A DNA stretch of 64,000 bases, taken from NCBI GenBank assembly GCA_050257045.1, contig JBLMWD010000118.1:34356-98355 (forward strand), read 5' to 3'. This document shows, one piece after another, positions 26,757-53,581 of the stretch. Under the pieces are notes generated by a model. That model was not told the DNA's origin and ran no database searches. It saw nothing but the letters and a program-made list of their open reading frames with translations. The translations under genes were made by a program, and so were the position numbers. Within the stretch, counting starts at the first letter, position 1. Every line of letters starts with the position of its first letter. Source of the DNA: Bacteroidota bacterium (GTDB lineage Bacteria; Eisenbacteria; RBG-16-71-46; SZUA-252).

Positions 26757-29399
26757 TCAGTGCCCGCGCGGAAGCCAGTTCACGTAGACGGTCGTGACCG
26801 GCGCGTCGACCAGGTCGACATCGCGGCGAACCAGGAACCGCTGCCCGTCTGCCGACACCGCGTAATAGTGACCCGCAGGGTCGATGTTGTCGATCGACTG
26901 GCGGAAGAGCGCGTGCGGCGTCCCGAGCGTCATCGTGGGAGTCGCGCTCACGTCCACCGCCATGAGATCGCCGCTCGGTGCGAGGTAATAGAGCTCCCGC
27001 TCATCCCGGCGCCAGTGCGCGTCGCGGCCGCCCTGGCTCGAGACCTGGAGCTTCCCTCCGGAGCCGTCGATCGACTGGAGATAGATCTCGGAGCGCCCCG
27101 ATTCGGTGGAGGAGTAGGCGATCCACCGGTCGTCCGGGGAGATCGAGGGCTCCACGTCCCCCGCCGGGCCCGCGATGAGCGGATAGGGTTTCCGGGAGCC
27201 GTCGAGCGGGAAGACCCAGATGTCCCAGAGGGTCTTGGGCTCGCGGACGACTCCGACGAGGAATCGCCCGTCGTGGGACCAGTCGGTCGCGATGGCGCGC
27301 TCCGGGAGGTTGAAGAGAAGCGAGTCCGTTCCGGCACCCGACGAGCGCTTCAGGTAGATCCCCGAGGGTGGAATCCGGTCCGACGTGTAGACGATCCGCG
27401 ACCCGTCGGTGGACCAGAGCGGAGCGTAGTCGGACGCGGGATCGAAGGTCAGGCGCGTGCTCACGTTTCGGACGGCATCGACGATCCAGATGTCCACGTT
27501 GTCGCCGCCGAAGGTCGCCCCCACCCGCCGGCCGTCGGGCGCGAGGCTCAGGTTGAAGTACTCGCCGGGGTTGCCCGTGGCGCTGACCTCCTTTCCGGTG
27601 CGATCGACCCAGACCAGGTGCATCCGCCGTCCGGCGGCGCCGCCTCGGAAGACGAGCGTCGAGGGGGACGACGAGAAGTCGGCGTTGGAGCCGACGCCGC
27701 CGCCCACGGCGACGTCGTCCACGACGGGAAACGGGTCGCCCGTCAGGCGCAGGGAGCGCGCATCGAACGGCTGCGCGAGGAGCGACCGGTCGCGCGCGAA
27801 GAGGATGTAGCCGGGCTCCACGTATTCGATCCGTGAGTACGTCCCTCGGGCGAGCACCACGACCTTGGACGACCGGATGTCGCCCACCTTCAGAATGGTC
27901 TGATCGGCCCGGTTCGTGAGACCGAGGAACAGGAAGTGCCGCCCGTCGGGAAGAAAGTGAGGCCAGGCACTTCCGGTCTCACCATGGGCGTGGTCGAGCG
28001 TGGTCACGGGGCGCGGGTCGCCGCCTCCGGCGCTCACCATGCGAATGGAATCGGTCGGGCTCCCGTCGAAGAGGATGGCGTCGTCGCGGCTCCAGGTGCC
28101 GTCTCCCGCACTCTGCGATTCGCAGATCGTCTGGGGCGGGCCGCCCTGGACCGCGATCTTCTTGAGCTTCCCTTCCTGCATGAATCCGAGATAGCGGCTG
28201 TCCGGGGACCAGAACGGCCGCCGGGCACCCTCCGTCCCGGGGAGCGGCTGCGCATCCAGCGACCCGAGCGGGCGGAGCCAGATGTTCGAGCGACCCGTCG
28301 AATCGGAGGCGTTGTAGGCGACGTACCGGCCGTCGGGCGAGACCTTGGGGGTGTCGCCAAGGAGGATGCCCCGCGGCGTGGGCGCGAAGAACCGCAGCGG
28401 GACCGGCTCCGGCGGCCGGTTCGCCATCGTGAACCCTGCCACGCCGAGCATCACCGCCACGGCGGCGCCCGCGATCGTCCAGGCGAGCCGCTCCCGGCTC
28501 TTCCGGCGCGCCGAGACGGTCGCCGGGATGCCGGCGCGCGATCCCGCCTCAGCGACCCACTTGAGATCGAGGTGCACATCGCGCGCGGTCTGATAGCGGT
28601 CCTCGGGACTCTTTTCGAGGCACCGCATCACGACGCGCTCGAGCGCGGGCGGGATGACGGAGCGGATCGAGGAGATCGGCTGCGGCGTCTCGCGCAGGAT
28701 CGCGGCGATGAGACTCGCCTGGCTCTTTCCTTCGAACGGGCGGCGGCCGGACGCCATCTCGTAGAGCATCGCCCCGAACGAGAAGATGTCGCTCCGCGAG
28801 TCGGCTTCGGCGCCCTCGAGCTGCTCGGGCGACATGTACTGGAACGTGCCGACGATCGTCCCCTCGGCGGTGAGGGGGTGGCTCATGGTCGGCGAGGAGA
28901 GGTCGCGTGGCGCGGCGCCGAGCCCGGTCACGCGCGCGAGGCCGAAGTCGAGGAGCTTCGCGCCGCCTTTCGTGAGGACGACGTTCCCCGGCTTCAGGTC
29001 GCGGTGGACGAGCCCCTGGCGGTGCGCGCGATCGAGGGCGTCGGCGATCTGGACGCCGATCTGGAGCAGCTCGGGGAGCGGCAGGGCGCCGCGCGCGAGC
29101 CGTTCGGCCAGCGACTCCCCCTCGAGGTACTCCATGACGAGGTAGTCCATCCCGTCCTGATGGCCGACGTCGTAGAGCGTGCAGATGTTCGGATGGTTGA
29201 GGCTCGAGACGATGCGCGCCTCGCGGTCGAAGCGCTGCCGCGTCTCGGGGCTCACGGCGAGATGCCCCTGCAGCACCTTGATCGCCACGGTGCGGTCGAG
29301 CCTCGTGTCGCGCGCGCGGTAGACCTCGCCCATGCCGCCGCTGCCGGCGAGCGCCTGGATCTCGTAGGCGCCGAGTCGGGTCCCTGGCTGGAGGGTCAT
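26757..29399 (-). CDS. Hanks-type Ser/Thr protein kinase with single TM segment and C-terminal TolB-like (PD40/WD40-like) beta-propeller
   Basis: Kinase motifs GSGGMGEVYRA, VAIK, HRDLKPGNVVL, DFGLAR, SPEQ. TM helix LAWTIAGAAVAVMLGVAGF. Repeated PD40-like units (SPDGRYVAY..., SPDSRYLGF..., STDGSRIVYTSD..., SPDDRWIAYSS...). Confidence 0.85.
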   Translation of the reverse strand: MTLQPGTRLGAYEIQALAGSGGMGEVYRARDTRLDRTVAIKVLQGHLAVSPETRQRFDREARIVSSLNHPNICTLYDVGHQDGMDYLVMEYLEGESLAERLARGALPLPELLQIGVQIADALDRAHRQGLVHRDLKPGNVVLTKGGAKLLDFGLARVTGLGAAPRDLSSPTMSHPLTAEGTIVGTFQYMSPEQLEGAEADSRSDIFSFGAMLYEMASGRRPFEGKSQASLIAAILRETPQPISSIRSVIPPALERVVMRCLEKSPEDRYQTARDVHLDLKWVAEAGSRAGIPATVSARRKSRERLAWTIAGAAVAVMLGVAGFTMANRPPEPVPLRFFAPTPRGILLGDTPKVSPDGRYVAYNASDSTGRSNIWLRPLGSLDAQPLPGTEGARRPFWSPDSRYLGFMQEGKLKKIAVQGGPPQTICESQSAGDGTWSRDDAILFDGSPTDSIRMVSAGGGDPRPVTTLDHAHGETGSAWPHFLPDGRHFLFLGLTNRADQTILKVGDIRSSKVVVLARGTYSRIEYVEPGYILFARDRSLLAQPFDARSLRLTGDPFPVVDDVAVGGGVGSNADFSSSPSTLVFRGGAAGRRMHLVWVDRTGKEVSATGNPGEYFNLSLAPDGRRVGATFGGDNVDIWIVDAVRNVSTRLTFDPASDYAPLWSTDGSRIVYTSDRIPPSGIYLKRSSGAGTDSLLFNLPERAIATDWSHDGRFLVGVVREPKTLWDIWVFPLDGSRKPYPLIAGPAGDVEPSISPDDRWIAYSSTESGRSEIYLQSIDGSGGKLQVSSQGGRDAHWRRDERELYYLAPSGDLMAVDVSATPTMTLGTPHALFRQSIDNIDPAGHYYAVSADGQRFLVRRDVDLVDAPVTTVYVNWLPRGH

Positions 29400-29446
29400 A
29401 AGAGTTAAGACGGTATCACAAAAACGTCGCAAGGGCGCTATATCGC

Positions 29447-29475
29447 TTGATTTAGGGGCGTGTTCGCGGTATAAT
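29447..29475 (+). promoter_or_regulatory. Sigma70-type promoter TTGATT-N17-TATAAT upstream of the giant S8 protease gene
   Basis: cTTGATTtaggggcgtgttcgcggTATAATcc has an exact -10 consensus, a 4/6 -35, and 17-nt spacer. It lies in the 249-bp divergent intergenic region, about 170 nt upstream of ATG 29648. Confidence 0.45.
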
Positions 29476-29647
29476 CCTCCCTTCACGCAAATCCCATCCC
29501 CCGTGGGTTCCGTTCGGCACGCTGACCGAGGAGGTGACCCCGCCCCAGGACCCCACCGTTCACCCCACGAGTGCATCCCGACGCATCGCGAACCATGCCC
29601 TAGCCGCGCTCGAGGCCGCGGCTCGAATCGTTCCATGGAGGTCAGGC

Positions 29648-37126
<7,479 letters not shown>

Positions 37127-37210: not shown

Positions 37211-39664
37211 CTACTTCACGACGGCGAATCGACCCCGGGCCGTCCCTTCGGCGGTCCGGAGCGTGTAGAAATAGATGCCCGACGCGAGGAAATTGCCGTT
37301 CTTGTCCCGGCCGTCGATCGCGAGCTTGTGGAATCCGGTGGGAAGGAGTGGAACCGGGATCGCCCGGATGAGCCTGCCGCGCGCATCGAAAACGCGAACC
37401 TCCACGGGGCCGGGCCGCGCCGTGCGGAACACCAGCGTGCCCGATGGATTGAGCGGGTTCGGGTAGACGCGCGGCGCCAGCCGGCCCACCCCTTCCCATT
37501 TCGCTTCGACCGCCGTCGGCACGCCCGCACCCTGGTTGTAGAGGATGGAGACCGTATTCGCGATCACGTTCGCCGTCACGAGGTCCGGCAGACCGTCCCC
37601 GTTCAGGTCGACGATGGCGACGCCGCTGGGGTTCTGCGACGCCTCGAAATCCATCCGCGGGCCGAAACGGCCGTCTCCCAAGCCGGGCAGGACGGAGACG
37701 CGGCTCGAGCCCGTGTTGGCCACGGCGAGATCCGGGATGCCGTCGTTCGTGAGATCGCCGGCGGTCACGTACGAGGGGTTGTAGCCGACGTCATAGGAGA
37801 CGGCCGTTGGAAATGCGCCCGTGCCGTTTCCCAACAGCACGGAGACGGTATTCCCGCTGTTGTTGGCGGTAACCAGGTCCAGATTGCCGTCACCGTTGAG
37901 GTCGATCATGCAGAGGCCGCGGGGCCGGCCGGGCACCGGGTACTGGCCCCTCACGCGGAGAATCCCGCTGCCGTCGCCCAGCAGGACCGAAACGCTGTTG
38001 CCGAAATTGGCCGTGACGACGTCCGGCTTCGCGTCGTGATTCACATCCCCGATGGCCACGCCGAACGATGGGCTCGTGGTGCTGTCCCGAGGCATGGACT
38101 GGAAGGTGCCGCCGCCGCGGCCCAGGTAGACGGAGACCGACCCGAGGTCTCCCGGCGCGCGGTTCCCGGATACAATGTCCGGCGTTCCATCCAGGTTCAG
38201 GTCGCCGATCGCCACCGCGAAGGGCGAATTGGCCACTCCCAGGTCGGTACGGGCTCGAAGCGTGCCGTCGCCGTTTCCGATCAGGACGGACAGGGTGTTG
38301 CCGCGCCAGTTCGCCGTGACCACGTCCATCGCCCCGTCCCCCGTCAAATCTCCGACGGCGACCGCTGTCGGGCCCAACCCCACGGGGTAATCGGTCCTCT
38401 TAAGAGACGGCTCTTCCTTGTTCTTCGACAGGACCGTGATGCTGTTTCCGGTATCGTTGGCGGTGATGAGATCCGGCGTGGCGCCGTTCAGGGTGCCGAC
38501 GGCGACCGCCCGGGTCCCATAACCCACTCCAACGTCTTCTCTCGTCACGAATCCGCCCGCACCGTCACCGTTGAAGACGAGAATGGCGTCGTTGTACAGG
38601 CTCGTCGTCGCCAGGTCGGCCTTGCCATCCCCGTCGAAATCCGCGACGCCGAGCCCATGGGCGACGGTCCCGATCTCGGTGTCGACTCTGGGCTGGAACG
38701 CGCCGCTTCCCGTGCCCAGGAGAACGGACAAGGTCATCGTGGTGTACTCGTTCGTCGTGACCAGGTCCACCTTCCCGTCATTGTTCATGTCTGCGATGGC
38801 GACCGAGCCGGGGTACCGGCCGGTCGCATAGTGCACCGCCGGCTGGAGAAATCCGGTGCCGTCGTTCAGGAGGATCGATACGTAATGCGAATCGAAACAG
38901 GGGACGGCGACGTCGGGCCTCCCGTCACCGTTCACGTCGCCGATCGCGACGTCGTTCGGGCTCACGCCGACAGCGTAGTCGACCCGCGTCTTGTGCGCCG
39001 GGCCGCCGCTGCTCGAGAGGAACACGGAGATGGTCCCGTCGATGTAGTTGGCGGTCACGACGTCGGAAATCCCGTCGCCGTCCAGGTCGCCCACGGCCAC
39101 CTGGATCGGTCCCCCCTCCGTGGCCCGGCTGAAGGCCGGCTCGAAGGCCCCACCGCCCGTTCCGATCAGCACCGAGGTCGTATCGGTGTTGAAGTTCGCG
39201 ACGACCAGGTCCGCGATCCCGTCTCCCGTCACATCCCCGATGGCAACCGCCTGTGCGCCGACCGTGTAATCGGTCCTCGCCTTGAAGCCTCCCGTTCCGT
39301 CGCCCAGCAACACGGAGACGCTCGTGTCGTTCGCCGTCACGATGTCCGGGGTCCCGTTATCGTCCAGGAAGCCCAGAACGATGCCGGAAGGGAATCCGTC
39401 GACCGGGAGGTTTGCCTTCAACTGGAACGCATCGTCTCCTGCGATGAGAACGGAAACATCCCCGGACGCGCTGTTCGCGCTCACGAGGTCCGGCAGCTTG
39501 TCACCATTGAGGTCGCCCATGGCCATCGCATAGGGCTGCAAGCCAATGGAGTAGGCGCGAGCCGCTCGGAACGAGAGCCCCGCGTCTGCCGCTGCCGGTG
39601 TGCTCATCAGGAGCAGGAACGCCATGTGCCAGGGGAGGGATTTCGCTTGGAAGATGGGGGGCAT
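37211..39664 (-). CDS. FG-GAP/VCBS repeat beta-propeller surface protein with T9SS type-A C-terminal sorting domain
   Basis: About 14 repeats of the (A/V)xGDxNGDGxxDLV... FG-GAP motif. C-terminus VYPNPLNPSGTLVFRTARPGPVEVRVFDARGRLIRAI...ASGIYFYTLRTAEGTARGRFAVVK matches the Por-secretion tail consensus. Confidence 0.85.
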   Translation of the reverse strand: MPPIFQAKSLPWHMAFLLLMSTPAAADAGLSFRAARAYSIGLQPYAMAMGDLNGDKLPDLVSANSASGDVSVLIAGDDAFQLKANLPVDGFPSGIVLGFLDDNGTPDIVTANDTSVSVLLGDGTGGFKARTDYTVGAQAVAIGDVTGDGIADLVVANFNTDTTSVLIGTGGGAFEPAFSRATEGGPIQVAVGDLDGDGISDVVTANYIDGTISVFLSSSGGPAHKTRVDYAVGVSPNDVAIGDVNGDGRPDVAVPCFDSHYVSILLNDGTGFLQPAVHYATGRYPGSVAIADMNNDGKVDLVTTNEYTTMTLSVLLGTGSGAFQPRVDTEIGTVAHGLGVADFDGDGKADLATTSLYNDAILVFNGDGAGGFVTREDVGVGYGTRAVAVGTLNGATPDLITANDTGNSITVLSKNKEEPSLKRTDYPVGLGPTAVAVGDLTGDGAMDVVTANWRGNTLSVLIGNGDGTLRARTDLGVANSPFAVAIGDLNLDGTPDIVSGNRAPGDLGSVSVYLGRGGGTFQSMPRDSTTSPSFGVAIGDVNHDAKPDVVTANFGNSVSVLLGDGSGILRVRGQYPVPGRPRGLCMIDLNGDGNLDLVTANNSGNTVSVLLGNGTGAFPTAVSYDVGYNPSYVTAGDLTNDGIPDLAVANTGSSRVSVLPGLGDGRFGPRMDFEASQNPSGVAIVDLNGDGLPDLVTANVIANTVSILYNQGAGVPTAVEAKWEGVGRLAPRVYPNPLNPSGTLVFRTARPGPVEVRVFDARGRLIRAIPVPLLPTGFHKLAIDGRDKNGNFLASGIYFYTLRTAEGTARGRFAVVK

Positions 39665-39761
39665 GGAGGACTCCCTATTCCGCGGGCCGCGGATCGCTTG
39701 GGAGAATACGCGCCCGGGTCCCATCGTCCTAGTGTCCCGGGGTATACCGACCGCTGCGGCG

Positions 39762-41759
39762 TCAGCCCCCGAGCTTCTGAAGGGTGGCCGCGTCCACGCG
39801 CATGCCGCGCCGCTCCGCCTCCCGGATGTCGGCGAGCCCCCCTGCCTTGTCCCCCGCGCCCGTGCGGGCAGCGCCTCGGTAGAGGTAGTAGGCGGCGACG
39901 CGCGGCTCGCCCGGGGGCGCGGCCCGGATCGCCTCGTCGAACGCCGGGATCGCCTCCGGGTACCGGCGAAGCTTCGTGAGCGCGTAGCCGATCGTGCCGA
40001 GCTGGAGGTAGTTGTCGGGGCGATCGGGGGCGAGCTCCAGGGCGCGCCGGCTGTCGGGGATCCCCTTCTCGTATTCCCCCAGGTTCACGTAGGCGAGCGC
40101 CCGGTTCGCGTAGGCGTCGCGATGCGCGGGATTCAGCTCGATCGCGCGCGAGCAGTCGGCCACGGCTCCGGCGTTGTCGCCCATGTTCAGCTTCAGCGCG
40201 CCGCGGTTGTTCCACGAATCCGGCATTCCCGGCTGCAGGGCGAGCGCGCGGTCGAACGCCACGAGCGACGAATCGTTCCGCCCCATCGCCGCGAGCACGT
40301 TCGCCTTGTTGAGCCAGATCTTGGCGACGTCGGGATTCAACGCGATCGCCTGGTCGAAGTCGGCGAGCGCCTCGTCATAGCGCTTCTCGTCGTTGTAGTA
40401 GAAGTAGCCGCGGTCGTTGTAGGCGTCGGCGATCCGGCCCGGATACTTCGCGATCGTGTCGTTCCAGAGCGTCCCCGAGTTCTGCCAGACGTCGCAGCGC
40501 TTCCAGGTCGCGAACGCCGAGACCGGGACGAGGAGCCCGAGCACGACGGCCAGCGCCACGCGCACCGGCGCGCCGCGCGGAAGGCGCTCGCGCGGCTCGT
40601 CGAGCCACCAGGCCAGGGCGACGAAGAGGCCGATGTAGGCGACGTAGGTGTAGCGGTCGGCCATGACGGCGCCGCCGATCGAGAAGAACTGGAGGACGAG
40701 GACGATGTTGATGAAGAAGAACGCGAGCCCGAAGAGGACGACGCGGTTGTTCCGGAAGAGCCAGATGAGCGCGGGGATCACGACGACCGCCACGGCCAGC
40801 GTGACGTAGTACTCGGGGCCGATCGCGCCGCGCGCGAGGCTCGGGTAGGGATAGATCGCCGAGAGACGCATCGGCAGGAAGAGCTTCACGACGTACATGA
40901 CCACGCCGTACGCCGCGAAGAGAGCCTTCTGGAAGGGCCCCCAGTGCTCGGTGATCGCGCCGCTCGCCCGCTGGATCTGCAGCGTCACGACCCCGTCGAT
41001 CAGGGCGACGAGCAGGAAGGGCGCCTTCTCGAGCCAGACCGCGCGCGTGAAGCGGCGCTTCCGGAACCAGTCGATCGCGATCAGCGTGAGCGGGAAGACG
41101 ACCGCGGCGGGCTTCGCCGCGACCGAGAGCACGAAGAGGGCGAGCGCGCCCCAGAGCCAGGCGGGCTGCTTCCGGTCGACGTGGCGCAGGTAGGCGATCA
41201 GCCCCGCGAGGTAGAAGAAGGCGTAGAGGACGTCCTTCCGCTCGGCCACCCAGGCCACCGACTCCACGTGCATCGGATGGATGCCGAAGAGCGTCGCCGC
41301 GACGACCGGCGTCCAGCGCCGCCCGCGCGCGAGCCCGCGCACGAAGAAGAAGACGAGCGCCGTGTTCGCGACGTGGAGGAGGAGGCTCGTCCAGTGGTAG
41401 GCGCGGGGATCGAGCCCCGCGAGCCGGTAGTTCAGGACGAACGACCAGATCGTGAGCGGATGCCAGTTCCCCGCCACCGGCGTCGTGAGCACCGCGTGGG
41501 CGTCGGGATGCGCGACGAGCGGGTTCTCGGTGACGTAGAAGTTGTCGTCCCAGTTCGTGAACGCGTTGTCGAGCGCCGGGATGTAGACGAGGAACGTGAG
41601 CGCGAGGATCGCAGCGAGCCAGACCGGCCAGGGGAGGCCGAGGAGCGGCGTTGCGTGCGCGCCCGCAGCCCTCCCGCTCGCCGCATGCGGCGGTCCGGGT
41701 CGCGGAGATCCTCCCTCTCGGAGCGCGCCTCCGCCCCGGTGCCTCCTGCTCGGGCTCAC
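39762..41759 (-). CDS. GT-C fold (DUF1736/PMT-like) membrane glycosyltransferase with C-terminal TPR repeats (TMTC-like protein O-mannosyltransferase candidate)
   Basis: GTG start at 41759 overlapping the GT2 stop (GTGA), giving MSPSRRHRGG..., parallel to the paralog N-terminus [21 protein letters not shown] loop motif, about 11 TM helices, C-terminal TPRs (DAYNDRGYFYYNDEKRYDEALADFDQAIALNPDVAKIWLNKANVL...). Confidence 0.8.
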   Translation of the reverse strand: MSPSRRHRGGGALREGGSPRPGPPHAASGRAAGAHATPLLGLPWPVWLAAILALTFLVYIPALDNAFTNWDDNFYVTENPLVAHPDAHAVLTTPVAGNWHPLTIWSFVLNYRLAGLDPRAYHWTSLLLHVANTALVFFFVRGLARGRRWTPVVAATLFGIHPMHVESVAWVAERKDVLYAFFYLAGLIAYLRHVDRKQPAWLWGALALFVLSVAAKPAAVVFPLTLIAIDWFRKRRFTRAVWLEKAPFLLVALIDGVVTLQIQRASGAITEHWGPFQKALFAAYGVVMYVVKLFLPMRLSAIYPYPSLARGAIGPEYYVTLAVAVVVIPALIWLFRNNRVVLFGLAFFFINIVLVLQFFSIGGAVMADRYTYVAYIGLFVALAWWLDEPRERLPRGAPVRVALAVVLGLLVPVSAFATWKRCDVWQNSGTLWNDTIAKYPGRIADAYNDRGYFYYNDEKRYDEALADFDQAIALNPDVAKIWLNKANVLAAMGRNDSSLVAFDRALALQPGMPDSWNNRGALKLNMGDNAGAVADCSRAIELNPAHRDAYANRALAYVNLGEYEKGIPDSRRALELAPDRPDNYLQLGTIGYALTKLRRYPEAIPAFDEAIRAAPPGEPRVAAYYLYRGAARTGAGDKAGGLADIREAERRGMRVDAATLQKLGG

Positions 41760-42544
41760 GCGCGAGCCGCCTCGGTCGCTGCGGCGGCACGCCGCCGCAG
41801 GTTCATCGGGAAGTGCGCCGACCGCGCGATCCCCCACCGCGCGAGCGCGAACTCGAGCGCGGTCCCCACGCAGCCGAATCCGTAGCGGATGCTCCGCGCG
41901 AAGTTGATCGAGGAGGCGTCGGCGGCGTAGCGCGTGGGGCAGGAGACCTCGGCCACCAGGTACCCGGCCCAGATCACCTGCGCGAGCATCTGGTTGTCGA
42001 AGACGAAGTCGTCCGAGTTCTGGTCGAGCGGCAGCGACTCGAGCACCCGGCGCGAGAAGGCGCGGTATCCGCTGTGGTACTCGGAGAGCTTCGCGCCGAG
42101 GAAGAAGTTCCCGATCAGGGTGAGGACGCGGTTCGCGGCGTAGCGCCAGAGCGGCATCCCGCCCTTCAGCGCATATCCGCCCAGGATGCGTGAGGCAACG
42201 ACGCAGTCGTAGAGCCCCGAACGGATCAGCGAGACCATGGCCGGGATGAGCTTCGGCGTGTACTGGTAGTCGGGGTGGACCATGATGATGATGTCGCCCC
42301 CTGCCTCCAGCGCCGCACGATAGCAGGTCTTCTGATTCCCTCCGTACCCCAGGTTCCGCTCGTGGACCACGACCTTCGCGCCGGGGAGCTCGCGCGCCAC
42401 CTCCACCGTGTGGTCGCGGCTCTGGTCGTCCACGACGATCACGAGGTCGACCACGCCCTGGGCCATCACCTCGTCGTAGGTCTTCCGGAGGGTGGCCTCG
42501 GCGTTGTAAGCGGGCATCACGACGACGACTTTGGAGGGGGGCAC
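41756..42544 (-). CDS. GT2 family glycosyltransferase, polyprenyl-phosphate sugar synthase (Dpm1/Ppm1-like)
   Basis: KVVVVMPAYNAEATL...VIVVDDQSRDHT...ERNLGYGGNQKTCYRAALEAGGDIIIMVHPDYQY gives the DxD and catalytic motifs of dolichol-phosphate mannose synthase-like GT2. Confidence 0.85.
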   Translation of the reverse strand: MPPSKVVVVMPAYNAEATLRKTYDEVMAQGVVDLVIVVDDQSRDHTVEVARELPGAKVVVHERNLGYGGNQKTCYRAALEAGGDIIIMVHPDYQYTPKLIPAMVSLIRSGLYDCVVASRILGGYALKGGMPLWRYAANRVLTLIGNFFLGAKLSEYHSGYRAFSRRVLESLPLDQNSDDFVFDNQMLAQVIWAGYLVAEVSCPTRYAADASSINFARSIRYGFGCVGTALEFALARWGIARSAHFPMNLRRRAAAATEAARA

Positions 42545-42724
42545 GGGCCAAGAGTAACGGGTTTGAGGCCTGGCTGCCAGCCGGGCGCGCCGGAGGCCCG
42601 CGCCCGGAAACGTGGAATTCGATGTTGCGGGTCTTTCCAAGTCAGGCGCACAATTTTCGGGCTGTTAAGGGTTTTGCCGTCCGCCCTTCCTTGCGGGGAA
42701 GGTTTCGATAGATCGAAGGTTCCA

Positions 42725-45415
42725 ATGGCCCCGAATCGCATCCGCGTTCTCGTTCCACTCGTCGCTCTCCTCCTCGTTTCCTGCAGCGAGAAGCAGGCGA
42801 CCGCGCCCAAGGTTCCCGATACCGGCGGCACGCCGCCGCCGGCCACGGACACCACGCCGCCCACGGTGACCCAGACCACGCCCGCTGATCACGCGACGGG
42901 CGTCGATCGCGGGATCGTGATCCGCGCCACGTTCTCGGAATCGATCGCGGCGAACAGCGCGACCGGTCAGACCTTCCTGGTCACCGGTGACACGCCGGTT
43001 GCCGGTACCGTCTCGGCCTCGGGCTCCACCATCCTCTTCACCCCTGCGGCTCCGCTCCAGGGGAGTCACGCGTACACGGCGACGATCACGACGGGAGTCC
43101 GGGACCCTGCGGGGAACGCCCTGGCCCAGAACTACACCTGGTCGTTCACCACGATCGGCCAGGCGCCTGTCGCGAACGCCGGACCCGACCAGACGGTCAA
43201 GTCCGGGGACAACGTGGCCCTCGACGGCAGCGGCAGCGTCGACCCCGACGGGTATCCGCTCACGTACACATGGACGCAGACCGCCGGTCCCGACGTGACC
43301 GGAGGCGCCCACACGCTGACCGGCGAGCGCCCGGGCTTCGTGGCTCCCTCCCAGACCACCACGATCACGTTCAGCCTGGTGGTCGACGACGGGCACATGC
43401 CGAGCACCCCCGACTCCGTTTCGATCTTCGTCAACTTCACGCCGCCGCCCGACACCACCCCGCCGGAGGTGCTGTCGACCGACCCGGCCGCCGACGCCAC
43501 CAATGTGGATAGCGGCACGGCGATTCGTGCCACCTTCTCGGAGTCCGTGGCGCCGGGCAGCGTCACCACGGGGACCTTCCAGCTCTCGGGCCCGGGCCCC
43601 GTCTTGGGGACGGTGACCGCGTCGGGCTCGACCGCCATCTTCACGCCTTCGTCCCCGCTCCAGGGGCAGCAGACCTACACGGCCACGCTCACGACCGGCA
43701 TCACGGACCTTGCCGGAAACGCGCTCACCCAGAACCATGTCTGGACGTTCACGACCGTGAACCAGGTGCCGATCGCGAACGCGGGCCCCGACCAGACCGT
43801 CGAGACCGGCGCGAGCGTGACCCTCGACGGGAGCCTGAGCAACGACCCCGACGGCCACGCTCTCACGTACGCGTGGACGCAGACGTCGGGGATCGACGTG
43901 ACCGGCGGATTGGGGACCTTCACGGGGGCTTCGCCGAGCTTCACCGCGCCCTCGTCCTCGACCACGATCGTCTTCAGCCTCGTCGTGAACGACGGCGTTT
44001 CCTCGAGCACGCCCGACCTCGTCCAGATCACGGTCCATCAGACGCTGACCGGCATCTTCGCGAGCCCGAACGGGAGCGACTCCAATCCCGGCACGAGCGC
44101 CGCGCCGCTGCGGACGGTGGCGGCCGCGATCGCCGCGGCAACGTCGAACGCCGTCGCCAGCGTCTACCTCGCCGGCGGCACGTACACGCAGGATCAGTTC
44201 GTCCTCGCCTCGGGCGTGAACCTCATCGGCGGTTACGATCCGACGTTCCAGACGCGCGACCCCGCCACATACGTGACCACGCTCTCGGGCGGAACCACCG
44301 CGCTCGTTGGGAATGGCGTGAGCAACGTCCGCGTGGATGGCGTCACGATCCGGAGCGCCGACGCCACGGGTGCGGGCCAGTCCTCCTACGCCGCGTTCCT
44401 CCAGGGCGCGAGCGGAGTGACGTTCCACGGCTGCACGCTGGTGGCCGGAAACGGCGGCGCCGGGACCGCGGGCTCGCTGGGCTCGGTCGGGGCTGCGGGC
44501 GCCATCGGCGCCGATGGCGGAGCGAGCGGCTGCCCCGACGTGAACGCGGCGGGAGCGGGCGGAGACGGAGGGAGCGGGCAGCCGAATGGAGGCGGCGCGG
44601 GCGGGAGCGGCGGAAACCTCACCTCGTCCTTCGTCGCGCAGGTCGGGCAACAGGGCTCGGGCCCGTCCGGCGGAGCGGGCGGCATTGCCGGAACGCCAAG
44701 CACGAAGGGAAAGCGCAACGGCGGACCGGGGTCGGCCGGCGGCGCCGGATCTCCGGGGACCGATGGAGCCGCGGGGGCCCCGGTCGGCTCCCTGAGCGCC
44801 TCGGGCTACGCGCCTGCAAACGGCGGGGACGGCGGCAGTGACGGAACCGCGGGCAGCGGCGGTGGGGGCGGAGGCGGATCGAGCGGCACTTCCTCCGGCG
44901 GCGCTGGAAATGGCGGTGGCGGCGGGGGAGGCGGCGGCGCGCCCGGTGCCGCGGGCACGGCGGGCACGGGCGGCGGCGGATCGTTCGCGATCGCGCTCGT
45001 CGGCTCGTCCAATGTCGTCGTCGACTCCTGCACGCTGGACACCGGCTCCGGCGGTGCGGGAGGCTCCGGTGGCGCCGGAGGAAACGGCGGATCGGGCGGT
45101 GGCGGCGGAACCGGCGGTCAGGCGTGCAAGCAGGACGTCGGCGTCGGCGGAACCGGCGGGGGCGGAGGCATGGGCGGCCGCGGCGGCGACGGCGGCGGCG
45201 GCGGCGGAGGCCCCACGATCGGGATCCTCTACGACGACACGAGCACCTTGAGCGAGAGCGGGAACAGCTACGCGCTCGGCACTCCGGGCTCCGGCGGAAC
45301 GAGCGCGGGCCACCCCGGATCGGCGGGCGCGGCGCAGAACGTGCTCCGGCTCACGGCGCCTGCGGCGGCCCGGACCGGCACGACGGCCGCGCGGGTCAGC
45401 GCGCTCCGTAAGTAG
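42725..45415 (+). CDS. Surface lipoprotein: 2x(SbsA-type Ig-like + PKD-like) domains, beta-helix domain and about 250-aa Gly-rich low-complexity C-terminal region
   Basis: Lipobox LLLVSCS. Duplicated TPPTVTQTTPADHATGVDRGIVIRATFSESI... / TPPEVLSTDPAADATNVDSGTAIRATFSESV..., each followed by ANAGPDQTV...LDGSGSxDPDG. Tail GGAGGSGGAGGNGGSGGGGGTGG. Confidence 0.75.
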   Translation: MAPNRIRVLVPLVALLLVSCSEKQATAPKVPDTGGTPPPATDTTPPTVTQTTPADHATGVDRGIVIRATFSESIAANSATGQTFLVTGDTPVAGTVSASGSTILFTPAAPLQGSHAYTATITTGVRDPAGNALAQNYTWSFTTIGQAPVANAGPDQTVKSGDNVALDGSGSVDPDGYPLTYTWTQTAGPDVTGGAHTLTGERPGFVAPSQTTTITFSLVVDDGHMPSTPDSVSIFVNFTPPPDTTPPEVLSTDPAADATNVDSGTAIRATFSESVAPGSVTTGTFQLSGPGPVLGTVTASGSTAIFTPSSPLQGQQTYTATLTTGITDLAGNALTQNHVWTFTTVNQVPIANAGPDQTVETGASVTLDGSLSNDPDGHALTYAWTQTSGIDVTGGLGTFTGASPSFTAPSSSTTIVFSLVVNDGVSSSTPDLVQITVHQTLTGIFASPNGSDSNPGTSAAPLRTVAAAIAAATSNAVASVYLAGGTYTQDQFVLASGVNLIGGYDPTFQTRDPATYVTTLSGGTTALVGNGVSNVRVDGVTIRSADATGAGQSSYAAFLQGASGVTFHGCTLVAGNGGAGTAGSLGSVGAAGAIGADGGASGCPDVNAAGAGGDGGSGQPNGGGAGGSGGNLTSSFVAQVGQQGSGPSGGAGGIAGTPSTKGKRNGGPGSAGGAGSPGTDGAAGAPVGSLSASGYAPANGGDGGSDGTAGSGGGGGGGSSGTSSGGAGNGGGGGGGGGAPGAAGTAGTGGGGSFAIALVGSSNVVVDSCTLDTGSGGAGGSGGAGGNGGSGGGGGTGGQACKQDVGVGGTGGGGGMGGRGGDGGGGGGGPTIGILYDDTSTLSESGNSYALGTPGSGGTSAGHPGSAGAAQNVLRLTAPAAARTGTTAARVSALRK

Positions 45416-48516: not shown

Positions 48517-51207
48517 CTACTTCAATATTGTGAACCTCCCCTGGGACGACGCCTCGGACGCGTCGATGCGGTAGAAGTAGACTCCGGAGGCCAGCGGCGA
48601 CCCCGTCTCCGAGCGTCCGTCGATCCGGACCTCGTGGCGGCCCGCGGCCGTCTCGGCGTCATACGCCGTCCGGACCAGGCGCCCCGCCAGGTCAAAGACC
48701 TGGACACGCACCCGTCCTGCCTTCGACGTCTGGAACGACAGCACCGCCTCGGGATTCAGCGGATTCGGCGCGATCGAGGCGGCGAGCTGCCCCGACCCGT
48801 TCACGACCTCGATCGAGAGGTCGCCGGTGAAGGACCCGCCGGTCATCAGATTTCCGCGAACCGTGACCGTCACCGTGTTCGTCCCCGCCGGGAAGCCGAG
48901 GCTGGCGAAATCGGATACGGCGAAGCAGACCTCGAGATCCGGCACACCGTTGCCGTCGGTGTCCGAAATCACCGCTCCCTTCGAGGCGAGGGCGTTCACG
49001 AAGGCGCCGTTGTACCCGAGCTGAACCGTGGAGAGGTCGACGTTTTCGAGCAGGAAGTCTCCGGCGATCGGCTCGACCTGGGCGCACCAGGTCCGTCCGG
49101 ACTGCGCGCTCGCGATCCGAATTCTCCGGAACCGGTTCTTCGCGACGAAGACCCGTGCCTGGACCTGATTCTGGATCGTGACCGGCGCCGTGTCGGAGCC
49201 GGTGAGGAATCCGTCGGAGACGGTGAGCGTGGCCGTGTACGACCCCGCCACCGCATACGTGTGCTGCGGCGTCGGACCGACACCGGTGGCGCCGTCTCCG
49301 AACGCCCAGGAGTAGGCGAGCTGGTCGCCGTTCGGGTCGGACGACCCCGTCCCGTCGAACGCGATCTGCGCGTGCACCAGCCCCGAATAAGGACCGCCCG
49401 CCTCGGCGACCGGCGGCAGGTTGGTGCCGCTCTGGCTGACGGTGATCTGGGTGGTGGCCGAGCCGCTCAACGCATTCGTGGCCGTGAACACGACGTTGAA
49501 GACGCCGGTCTGGCCCGGTGTCGGAGTCCAGTCGAACGTGCCCGAGGTGTGCGACGCGTTCGTGCTGAACGTCGATCCGACCGGGGCGCCATACGTGCCG
49601 AACGAGACGATCGCGTCGCCGTCCGGATCGATGGCGGTCACGGTGAATTCGATCAGGGTTCCCACCGCGCCCGACACCGAGAGGGGCGCCGTGACGACGG
49701 GAGCGCGATCGAAGCAGGCGACGTAGACATTGGTGGTTCTGGCGCCGGTCATGCTATTCGCCGCTGTGAACGTGAAGTTCCAGCTCCCCTCGGAGCTGAA
49801 GGAAGGTGTCCAGCTGAAGGTGCCCGACGTGTTCGTGGCGTTCACGGTGAAGGAGAAGTTCGTCGACGGCACCGGGTACACGGTCAGACTGGAAATGGCG
49901 TCCCCGTCGGGATCGGAGGCGGAGACCGTGAAGGTCAGGTTGCTGAGCGGACAGACCGTCAGGAAACCCGGCGCGGTGACGACCGGGGCGCGGTCGACGT
50001 TGGAGATCGAGAACGTCGTGGTCGCCGATCCAGTGAGCGTCGCCGTCGCGGTGAACGTCACGGCGTACGTGCCGGCCTGGTCGTATCCGGGCGTCCAGGC
50101 GAACGTCCCCGACGTGTTCGTCGCGTCGGTCGTGAACGCCGCGCCGGCCGGAAGGGGCGAGGCGGCGAGCTGGACGATCGGCTCGCCGTCCGGAGTCGAA
50201 GCGGTCACCACGAACGTGATAGGTGTCCCTTCCGGTCCCGAGACCGTGGCCGGGGCGGCGACGACCGGGGTCGCGGAGCAGGCGCCGACGTCGATCGCGG
50301 TGCTGGCTGAGCCGGAGAGCGCGTTCGCGGCCGTGAACGTCACGTTGTAGGAGCCTTCCTGCCCCGAAGCGGGGGTCCAGGCGAAAGTCCCCGAGGTCAG
50401 GGCAGCGTTCGTCACGAACGTGGCGCCCGAGGGGATCGGAGCCGCCGTGAGCGACGTGATCGGGTCGCCGTCCGGATCGGACGCGATGACGTCGAACGAG
50501 AGCGCGCTGCCTGCGCAGGTCGAGACGCTCGCGGGCGCCGACACGACCGGCGCGTGCGGCACGTCACGGACCGTGATGTACGTCGTCCCCGAGCCGATCT
50601 GCAGGTTCATGGCCACGAACGTCACCCGGTAGAGCCCCGCCTGACTGAACGTCGGGAGCCAGGAGAACGTTCCGAACTGCTTCGCCGCGTCCACCGTGAA
50701 GATGGCGTTCGCCGGGAGCGCGGACGTGTTCCAGGCGGTGATCGCCTCGCCGTCCGGATCGGAGGCGCTCACGGTGAACGTAAGGAGCGCCTGCTCGTCG
50801 GTCGAGGCGGTCGGCGGCGCGTTCACGACGGGCACGGAATTCCCCGCCGCGTAGATCTGAAGGAAAACCGTGGCGGAGCCGGAGAGCGAATTCGAGGCGG
50901 TGAAGGTGACGTTCGTCTGTCCCGCCGCCGACGGAGTCCACTGGAACGTGCCCGACGTGTGCGTGGCGTCCGACGTGAACGTCGCTCCCGAGGGAAGCGG
51001 CGATCCGGTGAGCGAGGCGATGGCGTCGCCGTCGGGATCCGAGGCCAGCAGCACGAAGCTCACGGGCACCCCGGCGTTACCGTAGACGCCGGTGGGCGCG
51101 AGCACGACGGGGGCCCGGTCCTGGGCGTGCGCGACGAGCGGGAGCAGGAACAGGGCGGCGATCGCCGCGGCGGAAGCGAGCAGGCAGGCTCGCGGGGAGC
51201 GGATCAT
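48517..51207 (-). CDS. Surface protein with six tandem cadherin-like/putative-Ig (He_PIG-type) repeats, a PKD domain and T9SS type-A C-terminal sorting domain
   Basis: Signal peptide MIRSPRACLLASAAAIAALFLLPLVAHA. 6x units of about 95 aa (APVVxAP...F.V.ASDPDGDxIxSL...P.GATF...TSGTFxWTP...G.Y.VTFTA.N.LSGSA). PKD: AEAGGPYSG...SSDPNGDQLAYSWAFGDG. C-terminal domain: IAPNPLNPEAVLSFQTSKAGRVRVQVFDLAGRLVRTAY...ASGVYFYRIDASEASSQGRFTILK. Confidence 0.8.
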   Translation of the reverse strand: MIRSPRACLLASAAAIAALFLLPLVAHAQDRAPVVLAPTGVYGNAGVPVSFVLLASDPDGDAIASLTGSPLPSGATFTSDATHTSGTFQWTPSAAGQTNVTFTASNSLSGSATVFLQIYAAGNSVPVVNAPPTASTDEQALLTFTVSASDPDGEAITAWNTSALPANAIFTVDAAKQFGTFSWLPTFSQAGLYRVTFVAMNLQIGSGTTYITVRDVPHAPVVSAPASVSTCAGSALSFDVIASDPDGDPITSLTAAPIPSGATFVTNAALTSGTFAWTPASGQEGSYNVTFTAANALSGSASTAIDVGACSATPVVAAPATVSGPEGTPITFVVTASTPDGEPIVQLAASPLPAGAAFTTDATNTSGTFAWTPGYDQAGTYAVTFTATATLTGSATTTFSISNVDRAPVVTAPGFLTVCPLSNLTFTVSASDPDGDAISSLTVYPVPSTNFSFTVNATNTSGTFSWTPSFSSEGSWNFTFTAANSMTGARTTNVYVACFDRAPVVTAPLSVSGAVGTLIEFTVTAIDPDGDAIVSFGTYGAPVGSTFSTNASHTSGTFDWTPTPGQTGVFNVVFTATNALSGSATTQITVSQSGTNLPPVAEAGGPYSGLVHAQIAFDGTGSSDPNGDQLAYSWAFGDGATGVGPTPQHTYAVAGSYTATLTVSDGFLTGSDTAPVTIQNQVQARVFVAKNRFRRIRIASAQSGRTWCAQVEPIAGDFLLENVDLSTVQLGYNGAFVNALASKGAVISDTDGNGVPDLEVCFAVSDFASLGFPAGTNTVTVTVRGNLMTGGSFTGDLSIEVVNGSGQLAASIAPNPLNPEAVLSFQTSKAGRVRVQVFDLAGRLVRTAYDAETAAGRHEVRIDGRSETGSPLASGVYFYRIDASEASSQGRFTILK

Positions 51208-51360
51208 GGGGGGGGCCATTCCTTTCCGGACTCCGTGTCCTCGGTCGAGGTGGAGCTGTGGAGGGCCCATGCGCGACGGGGGGAGAACGGCTCGAGGTCG
51301 AGTCGGCGCGGTCACGGATGTTCCCTCTTGCCTGGGCGGCGAAATGCGCCCGATCGCAGG

Positions 51361-52914
51361 CTACACCTCCCGGGGTCCGGAAGGCAACCGGCCTTCGTGG
51401 ATCGCCCGGATCGTTTCCAGGCTGTCGGCCTGGTCCGCCGTCTTGTCCGGACGGTAGCGCTTCACCCGCGCGAAGCGGAGCGCGAGGCCGGCAGGATAGT
51501 GTGGGCTCTCCTGCACGTCGTTGAACGCGACCTCGACCACCTGCTCGGGACGAAGCTGCACCGTGTAGCCGTCGGTGGCGACGGCGAGCTCCTGGAAGCG
51601 CTTCGTCTGCCAGGCGAGCATCTCGTCGGTCATCCCCTTGAACGTCTTCCCGAGCATGACGAATCCGCCGGAAACGGGATCGCGCGCGCCGAGGTGGATG
51701 TTGCTGAGCGTTCCCGCGCGCCGGCCGTGCCCCCACTCCGCTGCGAGCACGACGAGGTCGAGCGTGTGCGCCTCCTTCACCTTGAGCCACGAGAAGCCGC
51801 GACGGCCGGCTTCGTAGGGGGCGCCGGGCGCCTTCGCCATGAGCCCTTCGTGGCCCCGGGCGAGCGCCTCGCGCAGGAACGCGTCGGCGGTGGCGGGGTC
51901 CGCGGTGAGGCGGCGCGGCACGGCGAGCCCGGGCGCGAGGAGCTCGAGCGCGCCGAAGCGCTCGCGGCCGGGCGCGTCGAAGAGGTCTTCGCCATCCATG
52001 CGGAGGACGTCGAAGAAGAAGGGCGTGAGCGGAAGCTCCGCGCGGAGCTTCTCGACGTCGAGGCGACGGCCGAAGCGGCGCATCGTGACCTGGAAGGGAT
52101 GCGGGCGCCCATCCTCGCGGAGCGCGATCGCCTCGCCGTCCAGGATGAGCTCGCGCGCGGGGAGCGCGCGCGCCGTCTCGACCAGCTCGGGGACCGCGAC
52201 CGTCACGTCGTTCATCCGGCGCGAGAAGACGCGAACCTCATCGACCTCCTTGTGGACCTGCACGCGCGCGCCGTCGAGCTTGTACTCGAGCGCCGCCTCG
52301 CCGAGCCGCTCGAGCGCGGCGTCGAGATCCTCGGCCGGCTGCGCGAGCATCGGCTGGATCGGGCGGAACATCTCGACCCGGAACCGCGCGAGCGCTCCGC
52401 GTCCCTCATGGAGCACCGCGCGCGCGACCGCCTCGGGATCGCCCGAGAGCATCGTCGCGCGGCGGATCTCGGCCGCGGGAATGTCCGTCGCCCTGGCGAG
52501 CGCCTCCTCCATCACGCCGGCGAGCGCTCCCTGGCGGAGCTCGCCGAGGAGCATGCGCGCGAGGAAGTCCTGCTCCCCCGCCGTCGCGCGCGCGAAGAGA
52601 TCGGCGAGCCGGCGGCGGCGCTCCCCGGCCGAGCCCGCGCCGGCGAGGGCGGCGACACGCGCGAGCGCGTCGTCCGTCGCGGCGAGCGTGAGCGAGGGCT
52701 CGGCGGCCGCCGCTTCCCCGCGCACGCCGTAGACCGCGGCGCCTCCGATGCCGAGCCGCGCCTGCCTCGGATGACCCGAGAGATAGGCCACACCGATCTC
52801 GATCTCGTCGCCCTGGAGGCGCCGGAGGAGCGCCGCGAGGAGCGAGGCCTTGGTGGAGCGCGCGCCGGTCGCGGCGACGTCGCGCGAGGCGCTGGCGAGC
52901 TCGGCGAGGAGCAT
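51361..52914 (-). CDS. ATP-dependent DNA ligase
   Basis: MLLAELASAS... N-terminal DNA-binding domain. Motif I EYKLDGAR (KxDG), motif ...FFFDVLRMDG..., EGLMAK (motif IV/V). OB-fold C-terminus. Confidence 0.85.
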   Translation of the reverse strand: MLLAELASASRDVAATGARSTKASLLAALLRRLQGDEIEIGVAYLSGHPRQARLGIGGAAVYGVRGEAAAAEPSLTLAATDDALARVAALAGAGSAGERRRRLADLFARATAGEQDFLARMLLGELRQGALAGVMEEALARATDIPAAEIRRATMLSGDPEAVARAVLHEGRGALARFRVEMFRPIQPMLAQPAEDLDAALERLGEAALEYKLDGARVQVHKEVDEVRVFSRRMNDVTVAVPELVETARALPARELILDGEAIALREDGRPHPFQVTMRRFGRRLDVEKLRAELPLTPFFFDVLRMDGEDLFDAPGRERFGALELLAPGLAVPRRLTADPATADAFLREALARGHEGLMAKAPGAPYEAGRRGFSWLKVKEAHTLDLVVLAAEWGHGRRAGTLSNIHLGARDPVSGGFVMLGKTFKGMTDEMLAWQTKRFQELAVATDGYTVQLRPEQVVEVAFNDVQESPHYPAGLALRFARVKRYRPDKTADQADSLETIRAIHEGRLPSGPREV

Positions 52915-52995
52915 CGAGAGATTATACGTCGCTCCGTTTGACCTCCTCCCCTGTCCGGAGTAGCGTCTACGTGGGGTGGGACACAAGGAGGTTCC

Positions 52996-53565
52996 ATGAT
53001 CCGGTGGCTTCGGATCGCTCTCGCCGCGTGCCTGCTCCTCGCCCCGACCTCCGCGCGCGCCTTTCCGATCCGCATCGACTTCACCTTGAATCGCTCGTAC
53101 GCATTTCTGCCGCCGGAGGACCGCACCCCGGCGTACGGGTCCGGCTGGTTCATCCTCGACACCGACCTGCTCACGCAGAACGGCGCCGCCACGTACACGC
53201 TGCCCGCCCTTGTCCTCGAGGATTTCCACATGAGCTACGGGAGCGACCAGTGGCGTCTCCCCGATCTCGGCTCGCTCCATGTCGACTGGAATCCGGCGAT
53301 CCCGATGGATCGGCTCTACCAGGCTGATTGGGGACCGTTCTGCGGGTGGAGCCTGGCCGGGAGCGACTGGTGGATCCATGGCGGCGACCGGCCGACGTTG
53401 GCGGGCGGTTATCTCGACGCCGAATACGTCGACGTGATGTGGAATATCTCGCCGGTCGTGCTCGCGATGCCCGAGCCTCCGAGCGGAGTATTCCTGCTCC
53501 TTGGGCTCCTGGCGATCGGGCTCATGAGCCGGCGTCGGAGGCCCGCGACGGGACCGGCCGTCTGA
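52996..53565 (+). CDS. PEP-CTERM sorting domain-containing secreted protein
   Basis: Signal peptide MIRWLRIALAACLLLAPTSARA. C-terminus PEPPSGVFLLLGLLAIGLMSRRRR is a PEP motif plus TM helix plus Arg cluster, the exosortase recognition signal. Confidence 0.75.
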   Translation: MIRWLRIALAACLLLAPTSARAFPIRIDFTLNRSYAFLPPEDRTPAYGSGWFILDTDLLTQNGAATYTLPALVLEDFHMSYGSDQWRLPDLGSLHVDWNPAIPMDRLYQADWGPFCGWSLAGSDWWIHGGDRPTLAGGYLDAEYVDVMWNISPVVLAMPEPPSGVFLLLGLLAIGLMSRRRRPATGPAV

Positions 53566-53581
53566 GGTACGATCGCGGGGC

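Follow-up and report, generated by a model that had tools for sequence, protein, structure and literature searches.

Can a bacterial genome encode a counterpart of the animal TMTC enzymes together with the enzyme that makes their sugar donor? This question is raised by a 64,000-nucleotide (nt) stretch of contig JBLMWD010000118.1 (assembly GCA_050257045.1, positions 34,356 to 98,355), referred to here as the window, in which a gene for a family 2 glycosyltransferase (GT2) runs into a gene for a membrane protein with C-terminal tetratricopeptide repeats (TPR). TMTCs, which attach O-mannose to cadherins, have links to human disease; much about their structure and their choice of substrate has yet to be defined, and to our knowledge such enzymes are known only from eukaryotes. 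The original prediction, made from the sequence alone, took the two genes for a protein O-glycosylation module of the Ppm1/Pmt type, embedded among cadherin-like surface proteins. The analysis reported here identifies the pair as an uncharacterised variant of the known extracytoplasmic glycosylation systems that combine a donor synthase with a GT-C glycosyltransferase.

Two overlapping genes on the minus strand

The window has a GC content of ∼69%, and the named closest relatives of its proteins in the database matches are Candidatus Eisenbacteria. Frame analysis of GC content at third codon positions (GC3) selected two minus-strand open reading frames (ORFs) as coding, which together form the pair:

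41756..42544, minus strand: GT2 glycosyltransferase, 262 amino acids (aa); Pfam Glycos_transf_2, 2.5e-27
41756..41759, minus strand: GTGA, overlap of the GT2 stop codon with the GTG start codon of the membrane/TPR gene, read directly in the sequence
39762..41759, minus strand: membrane/TPR protein, 665 aa; GC3 analysis and Pfam

The junction confirms the GTGA coupling of the two genes that had been predicted. Overlaps of 4 nt are common in operons and alone prove nothing; that the pairing goes beyond chance is concluded from its recurrence in other genomes (see below) and not from the overlap. Promoter and terminator scans around the operon gave no usable information.

Evidence for a bacterial TMTC homologue

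Two protein alignments were used for the membrane/TPR family. A1 contains 44 close homologues, and A2 contains 26 diverse bacterial members from Eisenbacteria, Bacteroidota, Chlorobiota, Omnitrophota, Fibrobacterota, Elusimicrobiota and other groups. The N-terminal domain alignment of TMTC1-4 was taken from the supplement of PMC7801869, and its eight sequences were rebuilt as alignment A3. The domains and motifs of the window protein are:

40440..41759, minus strand: GT-C membrane domain, TMTC-like, residues 1-440, 11 transmembrane (TM) helices, N-terminus cytoplasmic
39762..40439, minus strand: C-terminal TPR domain, ∼6 repeats, predicted periplasmic; TPR_1 (2e-32) and other Pfam TPR families over residues ∼440-625
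41544..41552, minus strand: W70-D71-D72, the catalytic DD motif of GT-C enzymes, within extracytoplasmic loop 1 and corresponding to TMTC motif M1, aligned with TMTC FVFDD
41232..41279, minus strand: H161-PMHVESVAWVAERK-D176, loop 2 motif, equivalent in the TMTC alignment of TMTC 'HPIHTEAV..GRAD' and including the RxD of motif M3
41112..41114, minus strand: K216, the phosphate-binding Lys of TMTC motif M4 (KE[T/Q]xxT) in the TMTC alignment, invariant in A2
40644..40661, minus strand: A367-D-R369-Y-T-Y372, loop 5 motif, TMTC motif M7 (ERxxY), aligned with AERVLY; R369, Y370 and Y372 invariant in A1 and A2

When the positive-inside rule is applied to the helices of an AlphaFold2 (AF2) model, 11 TM segments result, with a cytoplasmic N-terminus, the WDD loop outside and a periplasmic TPR domain, which the model builds from 13 paired helices. 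As the number of TM helices is odd, the TPR domain is placed outside the cytoplasm. The multi-pass membrane domain has a GT-C fold, and its best match among solved structures is a protein O-mannosyltransferase: structure comparison gave 20.2 for yeast Pmt4 (321 residues aligned), 18.0 for ALG12, 17.8 for STT3B, 17.7 for AglB and 17.2 for Pmt2.

Profile comparison with hhalign places the domain closer to one particular GT-C family. The A2 profile aligned with the TMTC1-4 profile (A3) over 371 columns, covering the whole domain, with a probability of 99.9% and E = 8e-34. Against single sequences, the A2 profile gave E = 4.5e-19 for human TMTC3, versus 0.21 and 0.26 for the controls, yeast Pmt1 and ArnT. 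By BLASTP, the window protein itself shares 33% identity with human TMTC3 over 134 residues (E = 9e-18). At the sequence level, the membrane/TPR protein is strongly supported as a true TMTC homologue with the same architecture, as the original prediction of a TMTC-like GT-C transferase had proposed.

The conserved residues agree with this assignment. D71 and D72, in the context F-T-N-W70-D71-D72, are invariant in the 44 close and the 26 distant homologues, so that the acidic NWDD loop motif noticed in the window is indeed conserved across orthologues from several phyla. H161, P162, E166, S167, V168, W170 and D176 are likewise invariant across phyla in A2. The TMTC motifs that are both retained and invariant across phyla comprise DD, RxD (R174..D176 in HPMHVESVAWVAERKD), K216 and R369 of (E/D)RxxY; in TMTCs the DD is assigned a catalytic role, and the Lys and the M7 Arg bind the donor phosphate (PMC7801869).

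Other TMTC features are reduced or missing. Motif M2 (SHKSYRP) is partly kept, as aromatic-x-Pro. Both proposed TMTC metal ligands are lost, the Glu after the M4 Lys being replaced by Pro and the Asp of the M5 DW by a hydrophobic residue. The DUF1736 loop (TM7-TM8) aligns with that of TMTCs yet lacks DNP and DW, and the Pfam family TMTC_DUF1736 is not matched at E ≤ 10 by the window's two proteins of this family or at E ≤ 1 by the 26 family members. This absence fits the loss of the proposed ligand residues. Among TMTC homologues, the protein represents a separate bacterial branch, in which the donor and the metal site may not be those of TMTC.

The window proteins match neither PMT nor PMT_2 in Pfam and contain no MIR domain, and their isolated membrane domains match no Pfam or NCBIfam family at E ≤ 10. 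Among the 26 family members, weak matches were found to PMT_2 (6/26, best 4.9e-6) and PMT (2/26), and the profile of these members matched nothing among all PDB sequences. Of the profile matches that had been anticipated, the C-terminal TPR array was recovered clearly, DUF1736 not at all, and PMT_2/PMT weakly and in a minority of members.

The family is very large: at E ≤ 1e-5 it is matched by over 5,800 of 8,000 scored candidates, and its members are usually annotated as no more than 'tetratricopeptide repeat protein'. The existence of TMTC homologues 'even among prokaryotes' has been mentioned in passing (PMC7801869). A literature check found no functional study of bacterial TMTC homologues; GT105 also appears in bacterial-genome and gut-microbiome papers outside that check. 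The cyanobacterial pilin glycosyltransferase 'Ogt' was considered as a relative and rejected, being an unrelated GT41 enzyme.

The GT2 as a candidate donor synthase

The GT2 has no TM helix. It contains a GT-A domain of the dolichyl-phosphate mannose synthase (DPMS) type and the metal-binding D..Q of DXDxQ, and a long C-terminal helix (215-236) is a possible interface helix. Its signature motif is:

42263..42277, minus strand: H90-P91-D92-Y93-Q94, occupying the 'DXD' position of GT2 enzymes, here as HPD with Q following, aligned with DPMS D-A-D-L-Q

In 32 GT2 homologues from several phyla, H90, P91, D92, Y93, Q94 and Y95 are invariant. Conservation of the GT2 is unusually high: homologues under the names Syntrophales, Desulfobacterales and Thermodesulfobacteriota share 70-75% identity with it, and those from Bacteroidota metagenome-assembled genomes (MAGs) share 58-60%.

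By sequence, the best solved relative is the dolichyl-phosphate mannose synthase of Pyrococcus furiosus (E = 3.5e-14), followed by glucosyl-3-phosphoglycerate synthase (GpgS) and ArnC. The top NCBIfam matches, AglJ, Dol-P-hexose transferase (DPhHxTase), PpgS, PgfS and ArnC, are all polyprenyl-phosphate sugar synthases. These profile matches are weak: the best scores 70.6 bits against an equivalog cut-off of 325, and the others likewise fall far under their cut-offs. The protein can be regarded as a separate, unnamed GT2 subfamily, and the best reading is that of a Dpm1/DPMS-like enzyme, in agreement with the Dpm1-type motifs first recognized in the gene. Against this reading, soluble GpgS and mannosyl-3-phosphoglycerate synthase (MpgS) are near-equal structural matches. 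Because enzymes of this kind are such close seconds, the Dpm1-type assignment is not exclusive from the protein alone, and a lipid acceptor is argued from the genomic linkage to GT-C genes.

The pair recurs across phyla

This linkage was examined from both sides. Around TMTC-like genes, a GT2 of this kind lies within 6 kb in 3 of 80 genome loci and is directly adjacent in all three. Taken alone, the low count read as an absence of linkage, an interpretation overturned by the search from the GT2 side, which showed one synthase alongside many transferases. On that side, 80 metagenome loci were collected and the 57 with at least 500 nt downstream were counted. A TMTC-like gene stands immediately downstream on the same strand in 19 of the 57 and elsewhere in the locus in 6 more, and tblastn and the family hidden Markov model (HMM) agree essentially on these counts. 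The adjacent loci come from many unrelated metagenomes and three phyla; L029, L031 and L068 show this adjacent order. Among GT2 loci with no TMTC-like neighbour, two have a PMT_2-like GT-C gene directly downstream and one a UbiA prenyltransferase gene; in one Syntrophales genome the GT2 is solitary.

Within Eisenbacteria, all four closest-relative contigs examined (99-66% identity) keep the GT2 followed by a TMTC-like gene, and one adds a second TMTC-like gene in tandem. A stop/start overlap of 4 nt or 1 nt is present in three of them (L161, L162/163 and L165) and a 15-nt gap in the other. The overlap is retained while every other neighbour changes. The two genes form a conserved pair, consistent with the two-step logic of Ppm1/Pmt on which the predicted pairing was based. 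One donor synthase serving many transferases would yield the observed pattern of few GT2 and many TMTC-like genes, which is the main evidence for functional coupling.

The same data bear on the possibility that the two genes are uncoupled. The GT2 would then act in the cytosol in another pathway, as a glucosyl- or mannosyl-3-phosphoglycerate synthase-like enzyme or in a cell-wall glycan step, the TMTC-like protein would depend on some other source of donor, and descent would have propagated an accidental adjacency. We consider this improbable. Same-strand adjacency in 19 of 57 loci from so many sources, the occurrence of a second kind of GT-C (PMT_2-like) beside the same GT2, and the persistence of the overlap amid changing neighbours all argue against it, and the few-to-many ratio is the one expected of a single donor synthase for many paralogous transferases.

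Two further gene arrangements were seen in the compared loci. Tandem arrays of two to three TMTC-like paralogues occur in L164 (5183-8974) and in L002, L009, L010, L025, L030, L043, L071, L090, L125 and L136, sometimes starting directly after the GT2, and the family is strongly expanded in Bacteroidota MAGs. In L084 (2921-3697), L096, L113 and L144, the GT2 is followed by a class I S-adenosylmethionine (SAM) methyltransferase gene instead of a GT-C gene; this second recurrent GT2 partner has the N-terminal motif 'RFEDFF.D..Y.SLKN.LYNY'.

A second TMTC-like gene in the window

The window contains a paralogue of the membrane/TPR gene, which overlaps a gene for a short-chain dehydrogenase/reductase (SDR):

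3685..5385, plus strand: second TMTC-like paralogue, 566 aa, shorter TPR tail; 31% identity to the first copy (tblastn, E = 1.8e-26) and Pfam TPR matches
2915..3688, plus strand: FabG-like SDR, overlapping the paralogue by GTGA

The paralogue was included in A1 and A2 and has all the invariant residues. The reported GTGA overlap with the SDR gene is present in the sequence, while conservation of the coupling did not hold: just two of 80 other loci (L044 and L055) have an SDR gene after a TMTC-like one. With this count and a generic SDR, the two genes were rejected as a second conserved module, and their pairing is probably lineage-specific or incidental.

The surface-protein neighbourhood is variable

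The original prediction gave functional weight to the surface proteins encoded around the pair, and its description of the neighbouring genes matches the Pfam annotation:

37211..39724, minus strand: FG-GAP repeat protein, 12 FG-GAP_3 stretches, FlgD_ig C-terminal domain (Pfam)
42722..45415, plus strand: Big_5 x2/PKD lipoprotein with lipobox-like LLVSC, divergent (Pfam)
48517..51315, minus strand: protein with Big_9 x6, He_PIG x4, Cadherin_4 x1, PKD and Por_Secre_tail, ∼6 kb from the pair (Pfam)
29534..37126, plus strand: S8 subtilase, ∼2,500 aa, fervidolysin-like prodomain, FlgD_ig C-terminal domain (annotation)

The six cadherin-like repeats described for 48517..51315 exist as repeats; the label is loose, most of them being Ig-like Big_9/He_PIG domains. 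The start of the FG-GAP gene is likelier to be the ATG at 39664 than position 39724, with GGGAG upstream and the signal peptide MPPIFQAKSLPWHMAFLLLMSTPAAADA, which leaves a gap of ∼97 nt to the TMTC-like gene. The S8 giant has four internal repeats opening 'GGPD.FGY...DSD.P.GP.F.W.DI' (NIDO-like and ASH/HYDIN Ig-like domains).

An O-mannosylation module of the Ppm1/Pmt type, dedicated to these cadherin-like, Ig and FG-GAP neighbours as cargo exported through a type IX secretion system (T9SS), would be attractive on several grounds. Animal TMTCs glycosylate cadherin domains (PMC7001481, PMC11292533), among the neighbours are FG-GAP, Ig-like and cadherin-like proteins that end in FlgD_ig or Por_Secre_tail domains, and the FG-GAP gene is next on the same strand with no terminator-like site before it. 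The neighbourhood is, against this, not conserved even inside Eisenbacteria. The FG-GAP gene is missing at the corresponding position in L162-L165; it is probably a lineage-specific insertion, since L162 and L164, which are related contigs, lack the whole gene there. Only the nearest contigs retain the Big_5/PKD gene and the S8 giant (in L162 and L164 the S8 gene stands beside the pair); L165 has neither. Across 160 other TMTC-like or GT2-centred loci, no full-length relative of any of the four surface proteins was found, the short matches being to the FG-GAP protein in L004 (∼100 aa) and to the S8 protein in L058 (172 aa).

Since the surface-protein neighbourhood is not conserved, the argument from the pair being embedded in it carries no weight, and the surface proteins were rejected as conserved partners. 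Their proximity would be expected by chance, because proteins ending in a FlgD_ig or Por_Secre_tail domain are frequent in the window. Mannose, moreover, is not established as the sugar. A dedicated module is accordingly judged very improbable, and the FG-GAP, Ig and cadherin-like neighbours are possible substrates that are not indicated as such by the comparison. Mannose as the sugar, a protein (with cadherin or Ig domains) as the acceptor and a T9SS link are putative, and the cadherin, T9SS and mannose specifics are not supported.

Several other features of the region were recorded. The same FlgD_ig/Por_Secre_tail-type C-terminal domain (∼70 aa) ends three large secreted proteins within 22 kb (37211..39724, 48517..51315 and 29534..37126), so that a Candidatus Eisenbacteria genome may use a sorting signal of the T9SS type. 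The gene at 26757..29669 (minus strand, 970 aa) joins a Ser/Thr protein kinase to PD40 repeats (WD40-like beta-propeller), and a similar Ser/Thr kinase lies near the GT2/TMTC-like pair in L165. The long ORF at 51361..53793 (minus strand) has a spurious Arg/Pro-rich N-terminal extension; the true gene probably encodes an ATP-dependent DNA ligase starting near 'MLLAELASASRD', and DNA_ligase_A domains occur at the corresponding position of L162 and L164.

Proposed mechanism and nature of the acceptor

We lean slightly towards reading the pair as a two-gene extracytoplasmic glycosylation unit that O-glycosylates secreted or envelope proteins. [quoted passage not shown] The lipid-linked sugar would then have to be flipped so as to face the periplasm, although the operon yielded no flippase gene. 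In the third step, the 11-TM TMTC-like GT-C would use the lipid-linked sugar as donor, with its motifs facing the periplasm; the acceptor would be engaged by D71/D72 and the phosphate of the donor held by K216/R369. The periplasmic TPR domain would most likely select protein acceptors, and one highly conserved GT2 would probably supply the several TMTC-like paralogues of a genome, two of which are in the window.

The same two-step chemistry could also serve a glycan or lipid acceptor, such as lipopolysaccharide (LPS)/lipid A, exopolysaccharide or a peptidoglycan-linked polymer, as in ArnT, GtrC-type, YfhO and pentofuranose systems, with the TPR domain docking on an assembly or export machine. 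This alternative, which we regard as fairly unlikely, draws on the characterised bacterial GT2 plus GT-C systems, most of which modify glycans or lipids (PMC11194591, PMC8035078), and on the presence of ArnC among the GT2 matches. The loss of the TMTC metal-ligand residues is compatible with it, and so is the occurrence of TPR domains in polysaccharide export proteins (weak PgaA and BcsC NCBIfam matches). The membrane domain, however, resembles TMTC and not ArnT at the profile level (E = 8e-34 versus 0.26), and its nearest solved structure acts on protein. The conserved neighbourhood contains no polysaccharide or LPS biosynthesis genes, and the one enzyme of this build for which experiments were found, the bacterial GT-C TfpW with its periplasmic TPR domain, glycosylates a protein.

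A broader picture can also be drawn, which we hold tentatively and with rather more doubt than belief. TMTC-type protein O-glycosylation would be widespread in the Fibrobacterota-Chlorobiota-Bacteroidota (FCB) group and other phyla: a soluble Dpm1-like GT2 would make polyprenyl-P-hexose, and members of expanded TMTC-like GT-C/TPR families would each modify their own exported folded proteins, possibly with Ig, cadherin or beta-propeller domains. Such a system would be the counterpart, perhaps the ancestor, of animal cadherin O-mannosylation.

For a very large bacterial family known as 'TPR proteins', the analysis provides a testable glycosylation hypothesis, that of a new extracytoplasmic, probably protein, glycosylation pathway, which is put forward because of the TMTC homology, the invariant DD, Arg and Lys motifs and the repeated adjacency to a Dpm1-like GT2. 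As the pair occurs in Bacteroidota, genetics and glycoproteomics may open up if a cultivable carrier species is found. The bacterial members could also serve as models of TMTC structure and mechanism.

Comparison with known systems

The closest known relatives are TMTC1-4 (CAZy GT105; TMTC_DUF1736 plus TPR). The likeness includes end-to-end homology of the membrane domain, 11 TM helices, a cytoplasmic N-terminus and an extracytoplasmic TPR domain, a topology equal to that derived for TMTCs (PMC7801869), conservation of DD, HP.H.E..RxD, the M4 Lys and (E/D)RxxY, and several paralogues per genome. The bacterial protein differs in lacking the DUF1736 match and the metal ligands and in its shorter TPR array (∼6). 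Its gene is coupled to a presumed donor synthase, and in place of dolichol a bacterial polyprenol must serve as lipid carrier.

The actinobacterial Ppm1/Pmt system (GT2 plus GT39), after which the pair was initially modelled, differs in both components. The present membrane domain is not GT39 by sequence (E = 0.21 with Pmt1) and has TPRs and no MIR domain, and the locus offers the present GT2 neither a Ppm2-like membrane partner nor such a domain.

The principle of a synthase working with a GT-C is established for GtrABC, ArnC/ArnT, CsbB/YfhO, PpgS/Rv3779, Ppm1/Pmt and the pentofuranose three-component systems (PMC11194591). Like the pair described here, the three-component systems (GtrA/B/C, ArnC/ArnT, CsbB/YfhO, PgfS/PgfM, PpgS/Rv3779, pentofuranose) place a gene for a polyprenyl-P-sugar synthase beside a GT-C gene. 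The C-terminal TM helices that GtrB and ArnC possess are, in contrast, missing from the present GT2, and no flippase gene was identified in the locus. The present GT-C is TMTC-like with TPRs, whereas those systems mostly modify glycans or lipids.

Among bacterial enzymes, a likely analogue of the TMTC-like protein is TfpW of Pseudomonas aeruginosa, a pilin O-arabinofuranosyltransferase of 646 aa that has 11 TM helices along with a DDX motif and whose TPR domain is periplasmic (bioRxiv 10.1101/2020.04.19.049825). Compared by description only, the two share the same architecture, and TfpW glycosylates its protein from a polyprenyl-phosphate sugar. The tfpW gene adjoins that of its substrate, pilA, and a D-arabinofuranose (D-Araf) donor cluster, whereas the TMTC-like gene of the window adjoins a Dpm1-like GT2.

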